From a virus, in UHGV virus genome UHGV-1370838: DNA of 38,152 nt; one strand, 5' to 3'. The notes below the pieces were generated by a model that saw only the letters and a program-made list of their open reading frames with translations, did not search any database and was not told where the DNA came from. The position numbers and the translations under genes are program-made. Positions 16,402 to 24,566 of this stretch are shown piece by piece (the stretch's first letter is position 1; each line of letters starts with the position of its first letter).

Positions 16402-16478
16402 GTGGCATTAGCTCAGTCGGACAGAGCAACCGCCTTCTAAGCGGTTGGTCGCAGGTTCGAATCCTGCATGCCACGCCA
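16402..16478 (+). tRNA. tRNA-Arg (anticodon UCU)
   Basis: Cloverleaf folded by hand: acceptor GTGGCAT/ATGCCAC, D-stem GCTC/GAGC, anticodon stem ACCGC/GCGGT with loop CTTCTAA, T-stem GCAGG/CCTGC with TTCGAAT loop, discriminator G, encoded CCA. Confidence 0.9.
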
Positions 16479-21694: not shown

Positions 21695-21755
21695 CTTTAC
21701 CCTCGCTTATCCACATAACTTATTGATTACATTGATAACTAAAAAGATCGTCGAT

Positions 21756-22100
21756 TCAGAACTCTTCGATGTTCCAGCCACCACCTGCTTTCTTTGGCTT
21801 AACCGTTACCCCGATGATTCGGAACGGATACTGATCTGCGGCGACTTTGGTTTTCACCCTGGCGTCGTCGGTCCAGAAACCTTTCACTTCGTGCAGTTCC
21901 ATCTCGCCGGTGGCGAGCATCACAGCAAAATCGGGCGTATAGAACGTGTTGTCAGCTAACCGCAACTTGATACCCTCGAATCGATACCAGGCGATTTCCC
22001 CTGCACGTTTACGCTGCTCAAGGTGCTGGCAATACGCAGATTCTGTTTTGTTCATCTGGCCTGTTTTGAGTCGACCAAGAGCCTGTATCTGTTTTCTCAT
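21756..22100 (-). CDS. PD-(D/E)xK nuclease-like protein (DUF1064-like, putative resolvase)
   Basis: 114 aa; PDFAV...ELHEVKG motif; first gene after an operator pair. Confidence 0.55.
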   Translation of the reverse strand: MRKQIQALGRLKTGQMNKTESAYCQHLEQRKRAGEIAWYRFEGIKLRLADNTFYTPDFAVMLATGEMELHEVKGFWTDDARVKTKVAADQYPFRIIGVTVKPKKAGGGWNIEEF

Positions 22101-22103
22101 GAT

Positions 22104-22180
22104 TTACCTCTAAGGTAATTAGAAACCACATAAGACACGAAATCAATAGATTTTAGAATGTTTTGTTACCTGATAGGTAA
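22104..22180. promoter_or_regulatory. two operator palindromes TTACCTCTAAGGTAA (22104-22118) and TTACCTGATAGGTAA (22166-22180)
   Basis: Perfect TTACC-N5-GGTAA copies, centres 62 bp apart, between P-like stop and DUF1064 start. Confidence 0.6.
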
Positions 22181-22217
22181 TTATTGAGACGTAAAAAAAT
22201 GCGCTATCGCGCTGGTA

Positions 22218-23018
22218 TTACTTGATAAATCCTGCCGCCTTTCCCCGCCTGTATTCCTCCATCAGCCACTGCGCCGGTGTTATTCCCCCAAGGGTGGCGG
22301 CGTTAGGCATGCACCCGAAACTTCGCCCTGGTGGATGGTAAACGTCTCTCCCTGTGTCCGGAGGCGTACTCATGGGCTCTGGCTTTGCCTGTATGCTGAT
22401 CACCGGATCGGGTATCTGCTGTCCGGAAGCCACCTTTTTCGCCCAATCATCGAGCAGCCTGCGTGCGTGTTTCTCAACCTCAATCTCGCTAAGCTGGCGC
22501 TGATACATTGCACGGCGGGTATCACATACGACCCAGTACATAACCGGATGTCGCCACGGGAATCTTTCGGGACCACCAGGATATAAACTTTTTTCCTTGC
22601 TGTACCGGTGAAACTCCGCCATCACATCGTCAATGGTGACGCCAAGAACCATCTTGCTGTCTTTGCACCACTTGATAAATTGCCCTGGAGACGGCCAGAA
22701 CGGAGATTCACTGGCGCGGGCGTGGCGCATACCAGCAGAAACCTGTTCACGGGTTCGGATCCCCCCTTCGGCAAACGCAGCAATCCACTGCTGTTTTGCA
22801 GCAACTTCCTGCTCTGGCGTCTTCAGGTTGGTTACCACTGCCGCCGGAAACAGTTGTTTCAGCTGTTTAAAAAGGGCATCAACAAGCCTCTCTGCTGACA
22901 TGTTCACCACATTGTCATTGTTGACGTACTGATGCTCATAACCTGACATGCGAGAAAGGGCTTCTCCGTCACGGTTTTGTATCGCGGTAAAAACGTTGTT
23001 CACAAGAAATCCTCCCAT
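22218..23018 (-). CDS. replication protein P-like (helicase loader)
   Basis: GMRHARASESPFWPSPGQFIKWCKD closely matches the lambda P motif as recalled; start overlaps O-like gene. Confidence 0.8.
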   Translation of the reverse strand: MGGFLVNNVFTAIQNRDGEALSRMSGYEHQYVNNDNVVNMSAERLVDALFKQLKQLFPAAVVTNLKTPEQEVAAKQQWIAAFAEGGIRTREQVSAGMRHARASESPFWPSPGQFIKWCKDSKMVLGVTIDDVMAEFHRYSKEKSLYPGGPERFPWRHPVMYWVVCDTRRAMYQRQLSEIEVEKHARRLLDDWAKKVASGQQIPDPVISIQAKPEPMSTPPDTGRDVYHPPGRSFGCMPNAATLGGITPAQWLMEEYRRGKAAGFIK

Positions 23019-23815
23019 GCTTCAGGGCTGTTCCAGTGCGGAACGTTGTTATCAGGTAATGTTGATTGCTTCTGTCTGCTAATCTGCAGCCGCCTTGCCA
23101 GCTTCTGCTCCCACTGTGCCTGATGGTATGCCTTACCCTCAGCCATCCAGTAAATTCTGAACTCTGCAAGTTCCTGTGCCGTTGGCAGACTGTCCAGGTA
23201 GATCCCCTGCAATGAGCTTTTCCGAAGAAAGTCATCTGATGGCTGCCATTGTTCATGCATGACAAATTTGCCTAATTGCCCTGGCCCACCAGGAGGAACA
23301 AAGTTATTCATCACGGCGTTGTTTGCGCCGGGGTCATTAGGCACAGAATCCCCGCTTTTTGTCCTGCTCTCCCTCTCTTGGTTAAATGACTGGTTATATG
23401 ACTGGTTCTGGATCCCGTTTTTGGGATCATTCAACATCCCGTTTTTGGGATCATTCAACATCCCGTTTTTGGGTATATTCCCGTTTTCGGTAACATTACC
23501 GTTTTCGGGTTCATTACCCCCTTCTCGGTTGCCTTTAATGTTCCCGTTTTTGGTTATATTAAGAGAGAAAACCCGCACTCTTTTCGTCGCTCCCTTTCTC
23601 TCTCCGGTATCTGAAATAAGCCCCATTTTCATGAGCGATATAAGTCCGGCCTGCACGGTTTTTTTATTCAGGCAAGTGTCTTTAACGAGGCGTTCTATGC
23701 TGGGGTAGCAGAGGTTATATTCATCGGCTCTGTCAGCCATCGAGAGCAGTATGAGCTTTAATGATGAGCTACCTGGATCTGTCTCCCAGGCCCAATCTGT
23801 TGCATGTCTGCTCAT
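23000..23815 (-). CDS. replication initiator O-like protein
   Basis: N-terminal HTH-like domain; central NGN/KNG peptide repeats encoded by the DNA iterons; GGAG SD. Confidence 0.75.
   Translation of the reverse strand: MSRHATDWAWETDPGSSSLKLILLSMADRADEYNLCYPSIERLVKDTCLNKKTVQAGLISLMKMGLISDTGERKGATKRVRVFSLNITKNGNIKGNREGGNEPENGNVTENGNIPKNGMLNDPKNGMLNDPKNGIQNQSYNQSFNQERESRTKSGDSVPNDPGANNAVMNNFVPPGGPGQLGKFVMHEQWQPSDDFLRKSSLQGIYLDSLPTAQELAEFRIYWMAEGKAYHQAQWEQKLARRLQISRQKQSTLPDNNVPHWNSPEAWEDFL
23412..23560. repeat. replication origin iterons inside O-like gene
   Basis: ATCCCGTTTTTGGGATCATTCAAC twice in tandem, then degenerate copies (CCCGTTTTTGGGTAT, CCGTTTTCGGTAAC, CCGTTTTCGGGTTC, CCCGTTTTTGGTTAT); each has TCCC...GGGA dyad symmetry. 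Confidence 0.75.
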
Positions 23816-24131: not shown

Positions 24132-24160
24132 GATATGAAAAGACCGCCGGATGGCGGTCT
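24132..24160 (-). terminator. hairpin AGACCGCC-GGAT-GGCGGTCT downstream of cro-like gene
   Basis: Perfect 8-bp stem; on minus strand followed by TTTTCAT. Confidence 0.55.
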
Positions 24161-24181: not shown

Positions 24182-24412
24182 TCATGAGTAGAAGAAGTAT
24201 GCCAGTTCTGCTTTTGAGCGCAGCCATTGTCTTGATTTACAGGCTTTAAAAAGCCCATCCATCAATACCTTACCTGGCATTTTGCGCTTACCTGTTAAGT
24301 GAGTCTGGATATAGTGACTCGTCGTTCCGGCTTCCTGTGCGAAGGCTTCACGCTCATCCGGAGTAAGTGCAAGCCAGTGCTTTTTGAAATCGAAATGTCC
24401 GTTATCGCTCAT
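24182..24412 (-). CDS. Cro-like HTH regulator
   Basis: 76 aa; HTH segment TSHYIQTHLTGKRKMP; divergent from CI-like gene across operator cluster. Confidence 0.7.
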   Translation of the reverse strand: MSDNGHFDFKKHWLALTPDEREAFAQEAGTTSHYIQTHLTGKRKMPGKVLMDGLFKACKSRQWLRSKAELAYFFYS

Positions 24413-24437
24413 AGCTATTGCCTGATATTTATTTCAG

Positions 24438-24511
24438 ATAATAAATATTCACCCATAAGGTAACAAAAATCAAGGATAGTTACCTATGGGGTGCATTTAC
24501 CTGTTGGGTAA
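24438..24511. promoter_or_regulatory. tripartite operator region between cro-like and CI-like genes
   Basis: Three operator copies at 24449-24463 (TCACCCATAAGGTAA), 24480-24494 (TTACCTATGGGGTGC), 24497-24511 (TTACCTGTTGGGTAA); minus-strand -10 TATTAT at 24438-24443 with -35 TTGTTA 17 bp upstream. Confidence 0.65.
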
Positions 24512-24566
24512 TATTGCTTTAAATTGAATCATCTACTGATTCATATATGAGGCGATTTTCCAGAAA

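Follow-up and report, generated by a model that had tools for sequence, protein, structure and literature searches.

The 38,152-nucleotide virus genome UHGV-1370838, analysed over its full length and referred to here as the window, is by megablast a nearly complete phiV10-like temperate podophage of Escherichia coli (Uetakevirus, epsilon15-like), with 97–99% identity to phiV10, EC.W1-9, phiv142-3, and PAS61. Two of its replication genes lie side by side on the minus strand: a gene for a 271-residue replication initiator (23000–23815) and, directly downstream and overlapping its end, a helicase-loader gene of the lambda P family (22218–23018 as the longest open reading frame, ORF). This study concerns an array of direct repeats inside the initiator gene, a candidate replication origin, whose region is found in 422 of 5426 complete E. 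coli genomes. No origin is annotated at this locus in the records examined (the phiV10 RefSeq entry marks terminators and no rep_origin), and a description of the array as an origin was not found in the literature on the iteron sequence, on phiV10/epsilon15 origins, or in reviews of replication modules.

The initiator and loader genes

The initiator gene was defined from its ORF together with Pfam, PHROG, and PDB matches, and the encoded protein falls into three parts. The N-terminal domain (approximately residues 1–86) carries a winged-helix-type HTH_36 match at residues 18–67 (Pfam, 1.8e-10); the linker (residues 87–180), which holds the candidate origin elements, is of low complexity, with N/G/P/E/K/Q/S/D/T/R making up 81% of it; and a DnaT-like domain occupies residues 184–252 (Pfam DnaT, 1.2e-15). 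The whole protein matches phrog_1032, “replication initiation protein” (1.4e-108), and its C-terminal 70–85 residues match the DnaT C-domain chains 9zbt, 6aep, and 4ou6 in the PDB (E ~1e-20). This last similarity is the reason for the name “primosomal protein I / DnaT” that the gene and its homologues carry in GenBank and RefSeq, where “DnaT-like ssDNA-binding domain-containing protein” is also used. Since only the last ~85 residues are DnaT-like, the DnaT name hides the role of a phage initiator. Identity with DnaT itself was considered and rejected: with the NCBIfam equivalog NF002770 it reaches 85 bits, below the cutoff of 201, and only over residues 181–264. Judged by its sequence matches, the protein is a phage initiator with a borrowed DnaT C-domain, not DnaT.

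The initial annotation had called the gene “O-like”, with an embedded origin in the style of lambda. The layout stands by analogy, but the protein combines HTH_36 with DnaT and does not belong to Phage_rep_O. Membership of the lambda O family (PF04492 Phage_rep_O) was tried and rejected, as one of five members of the initiator family matches it (E = 0.034) whereas HTH_36 matches all five. BLASTP of the initiator against lambda O gave no significant similarity, and a 30-sequence profile aligned to lambda O by hhalign reached a probability of 18%, the aligned part being the helix-turn-helix plus wing, which in either protein stops where the iterons start. Among viral contigs, a search for relatives of lambda O recovered nothing but sequences identical to that of lambda. 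Weak Pfam RP-C matches (plasmid Rep) were present in two of five family members. The AlphaFold model of the initiator was unusable (mean predicted local distance difference test score of 35), its alignment being shallow and made of near-identical homologues. The downstream loader had been described correctly as P-like: it matches Pfam Phage_lambda_P at 1.5e-56 and phrog_109, “P-like helicase loader”, at 4.7e-92, and the start annotated in phiV10 gives a 4-nt overlap with the initiator gene.

A six-copy array in the linker-coding sequence

The array spans 23412–23553 on the minus strand and consists of six direct repeats in one orientation, with the sense core CC(A/G)AAAACGG and the full form ATCCCAAAAACGGGAT. 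Read on the plus strand, the cores are exact matches to CCGTTTTYGG at 23415–23424, 23439–23448, 23463–23472, 23481–23490, 23499–23508, and 23544–23553, and a repeat search of the window gives start-to-start spacings of 24, 24, 18, 18, and 45 nt. The perfect tandem 24-mers of the initial annotation were recovered by Tandem Repeats Finder as ATCCCGTTTTTGGGATCATTCAAC × 2.6 at 23412–23473 with 100% matches, and a further 18-nt period follows at 23463–23518. Of the additional degenerate CCGTTTT(T/C)GG copies that had been proposed, enough are exact to bring the cores to six in total, while a seventh at 23519–23528 (CCCTTCTCGG) is at most a possible decayed copy: it has two mismatches, does not keep the phase of the others, and varies greatly among close relatives. 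Likewise the TCCC...GGGA dyad, earlier ascribed to every copy, is complete in the three 24-mer copies, and the other three retain only CC(G)...(C)GG. The array stands out from the rest of the window, where exact CCGTTTTYGG has one match in 38 kb (26950, minus strand); the 16-mer ATCCCGTTTTTGGGAT occurs three times with up to three mismatches, a number reached in 0 of 100 shuffles. All six cores lie in one reading frame of the minus-strand ORF and encode residues 88–134 of 271. Its translation confirms the NGN/KNG peptide repeats that had been read from the array (...NITKNGNIKGNREGGNEPENGNVTENGNIPKNGMLNDPKNGMLNDPKNGIQNQ...; ...TKNGN...PENGNVTENGNIPKNGMLNDPKNGMLNDPKNGIQ...).

A cluster of three GATC sites within 42 bp of the array (23411, 23425, and 23449) was considered as a signal and rejected. 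GGGATC produces it as a by-product, the window has comparable clusters in other places, and its total of 147 sites compares with 146 expected from shuffles.

Tandem dyads of this kind could act in RNA or serve another protein, for instance by forming hairpins that tune how the initiator mRNA or an antisense transcript is translated or terminated, or by belonging to an antisense gene. The sense-strand RNA fold is more stable than expected (z = -3.9), a scan of the plus strand picks out terminator-like hairpins at 23422–23465, and GenBank record CP025713 annotates the equivalent antisense ORF as “putative membrane protein”. Hairpins of this kind, however, arise trivially wherever dyads stand in tandem, and the number of terminators scored was 5, with 3.4 expected. 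The dyad arms are short (3–5 nt) around an asymmetric central A5C, and no Rfam family is present at the array. Neither Pfam nor PHROG gives a match to the antisense ORF, which would be broken by the frame-shifted repeat spacings seen in relatives. We therefore consider a role in RNA or in an antisense gene very unlikely. The antisense ORF itself (23259–23708, plus strand, 149 residues) encodes hydrophobic IPFLGSFN repeats, which are the iterons read backwards, and is probably spurious.

Conservation of the repeats across relatives

The comparison set comprised 80 diverse genomic loci with N-domain identities of 41–87%, drawn from Vibrio, Pseudoalteromonas, Marinomonas, Acinetobacter, Providencia, Edwardsiella, Sphingomonadales, Desulfovibrionaceae, and others; 75 of them were usable in a motif-free test. 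Relatives that have only the N-domain in common with the window (Edwardsiella GF-2, Vibrio Her, Acinetobacter AP22, and PPompW prophages were examined) carry arrays in the same position with the related motifs TCCCAAAATTGGGA, CCGAAAACGG, and ACCCAAATTTGGGT, whereas SPN1S and Tyrion, which have only the DnaT-like C-domain in common, have no such array. Motif density after the N-domain is 7.7 per kb over the 80 loci, as against 0.44 per kb elsewhere, and the motif is still present at N-domain identities of 41–60%. In the motif-free test, which looked for de novo 9-mers in the 300 nt after the N-domain, at least three copies were found in 75/75 loci and at least four in 69/75; the latter count fell to 0/75 in upstream and 6/75 in downstream controls.

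These relatives allow a DNA element to be told from a peptide repeat. Were the array a slippage-prone, low-complexity repeat coding for a linker in which peptide or length matters and the DNA has no function, its free, in-frame variation in copy number, the disordered-like composition of the linker, and the single frame occupied by all six cores of the window would be accounted for. In relatives, though, a single DNA motif falls in two or three different frames and yields unrelated peptides: in at least two frames in 43 of the 80 loci, and in all three in 10 (PKNG / QKR / PKTE). The peptides vary (PKIG, PENG, PKFG, PIYG; KNG, KIG, KFG, IYG, ENG) while the DNA keeps CCC-(A/T-rich 6)-GGG, and this persists down to the low N-domain identities given above. 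Synonymous positions are also fixed. Within the (K/E)NG repeats, Lys is encoded by AAA in 66/66 cases (65% elsewhere in the same genes), Asn by AAC in 100/104 (55%), and Pro by CCC in 75/75 (14%). A repeat maintained for its peptide or length alone thus seems highly improbable to us, and the sequences show the repeats to be conserved as DNA, not as peptide, and to be inherited with the N-terminal DNA-binding domain, whatever C-domain follows.

Variation within the lineage was examined in 45 distinct, near-identical genes of the modal layout, all within 60 differences of the reference. Variable sites in the N-domain are 18 synonymous and 3 nonsynonymous, and those of the linker are mostly nonsynonymous; within the linker, variation is lowest in the iteron cores together with the adjoining 12-mers described below (4/101 versus 28/181 variable sites, p = 0.003). 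The comparison of iteron number across relatives that the initial annotation had called for gives a result like that between lambda and the Shiga toxin (Stx) phages (PMC7466680): even between nearly identical phages, copy number changes in frame over a range of 4–11, with proteins of 263–311 residues, and both the 24-nt and the 18-nt unit expand and contract. Arrays in 78 viral contigs hold 4–9 cores, 59 of them in the modal layout (45, 18, 18, 24, 24), and the upper end of the range is an E. coli protein of 311 residues with 11 cores.

The C-domains of N-domain relatives differ, being DnaT, Phg_2220_C, or none detected by Pfam, and the C-terminal half of GF-2 is one that we take to be lambda-O-like. 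This variety fits a modular cassette of DNA-binding domain plus origin joined to different helicase-recruiting domains. One homologue of 459 residues, from a Sphingomonadales metagenome-assembled genome (locus L096, nt ~1760–2050), contains an in-frame GIY-YIG-like insertion (YVYRLIHPETGQYYIGVRS) between the N-domain and the iterons, which may be an insertion of the homing-endonuclease type at the domain junction.

A second repeat element and purine-rich tracts

Beside the last iteron lies a second repeat element (23379–23411, minus strand), absent from the initial annotation, with the sense sequence ATCCA-GAACCAGTCATA-TAACCAGTCATT-TAACC. Its (G/T)AACC pentamer occurs three times at intervals of 12 nt, beginning exactly 5 nt past the last iteron, and Tandem Repeats Finder reports it as a 12-mer × 2.4 at 23379–23407. 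phiV10 has one additional 12-mer unit. The offset is retained in relatives, where the first (G/T)AAYC pentamer begins 5 nt past the last iteron in 47 of 52 distinct arrays and is present in two or three copies at 12–13-nt spacing. Because the spacing is either 12 or 13 nt, the copies land in different reading frames (NQ/NL versus EP/ES), as they do in 34 arrays. In this GAAYC-type element, conservation is again at the level of the DNA. On the model of the oriC and RK2 13-mers, we regard the 12–13-mers as a candidate element for unwinding or for binding of single-stranded DNA (ssDNA).

Two polypurine tracts bracket the array. No other 35-mers in the window are as purine-skewed: each has 30/35 purines on the sense (minus) strand, and 35-mers that reach 30 or more account for 5e-5 of the window. 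One (23349–23383, sense AACCAAGAGAGGGAGAGCAGGACAAAAAGCGGGGA) lies downstream of the repeats, and the other (23571–23605) is on the N-domain side, overlaps the coding sequence of the conserved N-domain wing, and has a short inverted repeat (23562–23570/23595–23603). The 30 nt adjoining the repeats are 43% AT and 90% purine in the window. The corresponding 30 nt in relatives are 44% A and 66% AT, as compared with 30% A and 53% AT in the rest of the gene, so that the G+A polypurine tract of this lineage stands where relatives have an A-rich stretch.

Short polypurine/polypyrimidine inverted repeats also bracket the whole array at 23370–23379, 23561–23570, and 23595–23603 (plus strand TCCCTCTCTT ... 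AAGAGAGAAA ... TTTCTCTCT). They pair in the ssDNA fold (z -2.1) and in the RNA fold (z -3.9). A similar pair is present in the closest distinct relative examined (L018), and remoter relatives encode other residues at the upstream tract. In many enterobacterial and Vibrio relatives a Dam site, AAAGATCT, is conserved directly after the GAAYC repeats (loci L014, L012, L026, L044, L061, L070, L071, L085, and L091), reminiscent of GATC-containing origin repeats; the window lacks AAAGATCT at this spot and has its GATC sites inside the iterons, at the three positions given above.

Proposed origin and mechanism

Taken together, these observations make it likely, in our view, that the array forms the initiator-binding iterons of the phage replication origin, which, like that of lambda, would lie within the initiator gene, here in the part that codes for the linker. 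This reading agrees with each of the computational tests applied. Origin activity itself, a theta mode, and dependence on DnaB are what we infer from the arrangement. An early transcript from the immunity region would yield the 271-residue initiator, whose N-terminal HTH_36 domain, probably a dimer given the CCC...GGG dyad, would bind the six CC(A/G)AAAACGG repeats and build a complex resembling the lambda O-some. Strain would then be released in the adjoining GAACC/TAACC 12-mers and the polypurine tract just downstream. There the C-terminal DnaT-like domain could contact ssDNA, the P-like loader, or both, and the loader would deliver host DnaB. Transcription of the initiator gene would itself pass over the origin, comparable to transcription from pR in lambda. 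As the linker peptide appears to be loosely constrained, slippage could alter the number of iterons in frame and leave the protein intact.

Several points weigh against this interpretation. Experimental evidence of binding, unwinding, or autonomous replication was not found in the literature for this phage or its relatives. A strongly AT-rich unwinding element was not found beside the array in this lineage: the AT-rich flanks claimed initially amount to mild instability (z ~1.1–1.8, slightly below average stability), and the truly AT-rich spots near the replication genes are intergenic (24422, 24518, 22139, and 24084). No DnaA box was found near the array, the nearest lying at 21707; the lambda origin likewise needs none. 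The frame and codon instances counted across relatives are related by descent and tandem duplication, which makes their p-values overstate independence; the direction and breadth of the effect are unambiguous in the sequences compared.

Two further hints of an origin have their own confounders. The cumulative GC-skew minimum of the 38-kb window falls at 23630, within ~100 bp of the array, which is suggestive as a weak hint, but the minimum is confounded by a switch in gene orientation near 24.4–24.6 kb, ~0.8 kb away. A circular E. coli “plasmid” record of 8461 bp, NZ_CP148379.1 (L179), lists no replicon type and is made up of a segment of a related prophage, with a dicA-like repressor, cro, ydaT, a related initiator with four iteron cores, P, hokD/rem, and defence-like genes. 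It has the look of a lambda-dv-type mini-replicon that arose naturally, unless it is an artefact of assembly, and provides a weak hint for an origin; it is a single record, and the same segment is chromosomal in other genomes.

The location of the AT-rich spots bears on a further possibility, namely that the repeats bind the initiator but serve mainly autoregulation, copy control, or incompatibility (titration or handcuffing), with initiation elsewhere, for example in the AT-rich intergenic regions at ~24420–24550 or 22100–22200. The regions of lowest stability near the replication genes are indeed intergenic rather than beside the array, and plasmid iterons are known to have control functions as well (PMC5043065). 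These regions are, however, a divergent-promoter/operator region and a gene-end region, and neither carries iteron copies, whereas the fixed-distance GAAYC repeats and the A-rich or purine tract beside the last iteron (47/52 arrays) resemble an origin core and not a titration site. A purely regulatory array accordingly seems unlikely to us.

More tentatively, and at less than even confidence, we suggest that the N-domain, the CCCAAAAACGGG-type iterons, and the fixed-offset triplet of GAAYC 12–13-mers could constitute one conserved, mobile “origin cassette” inside coding sequence. It would have been recombined with different C-terminal helicase-recruiting domains in a large family of temperate phages that extends from Enterobacteria to Acinetobacter, Vibrio, and Sphingomonadales. 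The GAAYC repeats would then be a previously undescribed sequence-specific element for unwinding, ssDNA binding, or helicase loading, the phage counterpart of the oriC and RK2 13-mers.

If true, the origin interpretation would provide a defined origin for phiV10/epsilon15-like phages, in use as O157 reporter and typing phages, and for many Acinetobacter, Vibrio, and Edwardsiella prophages, and it would correct the routine misannotation of the initiator as “primosomal protein DnaT”. It would also offer a clean case of overlapping codes, in which the coding frame tolerates what the DNA element requires, with the result that the same motif occurs in three frames. For a non-lambda initiator, the GAAYC repeats offer a candidate unwinding or loading site that can be tested, and this element, together with the breadth of the family, is the newest part of the result. 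That an origin can lie within its initiator gene is a principle known since lambda, so the result extends existing knowledge and does not change it. The array very probably forms the origin, a result that is plausible though unsurprising.

Genomic neighbourhood

Upstream of the replication genes, between them and a cro-like gene (24182–24412), is a strong terminator-like hairpin at 24141–24160 on the minus strand (8-bp stem with 6 GC pairs, followed by a T-run), which is also annotated in phiV10. Read-through or antitermination at this hairpin may be needed for transcription into the initiator gene and hence across the proposed origin. The only match in an Rfam scan of the window was a phage-borne tRNA-Arg (anticodon TCT) at 16402–16478 on the plus strand, a tRNA that the annotations of O157 typing phages 9 and 10 list as well. 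phiV10-like replication and immunity segments were additionally seen near one end of two larger records, PP488543.1 (phage BP9, 138 kb, classed as Vequintavirus) and PP350014.1 (PH444, 115 kb). Both are probably chimeric assemblies or contain co-assembled prophage DNA.

Comparison with known replication origins

The closest parallel is the origin of lambda, where residues 117–145 of the 299 in O are encoded by four iterons (ATCCCTCAAAACGAGGGA and variants), with an A-rich tract after them. In both systems the iterons occupy a central position in the initiator gene and fall in the linker that joins the DNA-binding N-domain to the C-domain (PMC7466680, PMC5043065). Both use direct repeats with the character of a TCCC...A-rich...GGGA dyad (ATCCCTCAAAACGAGGGA in lambda, ATCCCAAAAACGGGAT here), and in both a loader gene of the P family comes immediately after the initiator gene. 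The AT-rich region of the lambda origin is strand-asymmetric (PMC5043065), and a strand-asymmetric, purine-rich tract, at 23349–23383 in the window, takes the corresponding place on the C-terminal side of the phiV10-like array. The two differ in that the phiV10-like initiator falls outside the Phage_rep_O family and has a DnaT-like C-domain, and in that its iterons are shorter (12–16 versus 18–19 bp), number six, and are spaced by 18 or 24 nt. The phiV10-like array also has the extra GAAYC 12-mer element, and the adjoining tract is G+A-rich in this lineage, not AT-rich. Compared at the level of sequence, the architecture is that of lambda, but its DNA-binding domain differs from the one in lambda O or is a very distant relative of it.

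Stx phages carry six iterons and a correspondingly longer O, and iteron number differs between related phages (PMC7466680). In 933W and P27, as in the phiV10-like family with its 4–11 cores and proteins of 263–311 residues, additional iterons within the initiator gene lengthen the protein. The Stx phage proteins are nevertheless true lambda O homologues with lambda-type 19-bp iterons, for which O binding has been shown by experiment, while the phiV10-like family is known from sequence.

In oriC and RK2, unwinding takes place at the 13-mers, which the initiator binds in the form of ssDNA (PMC5043065). Like them, the GAAYC repeats are 12–13-nt direct repeats right beside the initiator-binding sites and agree with them in number, period, and position. 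They differ in that the GAAYC repeats lie in coding sequence, are not notably AT-rich in the window, and have no sequence in common with the GATCTnTTnTTTT 13-mers. Finally, E. coli DnaT resembles the initiator over the C-terminal 70–85 residues of the latter, whereas the N-terminal half of the initiator is an HTH_36 DNA-binding domain followed by the iteron-coded linker.

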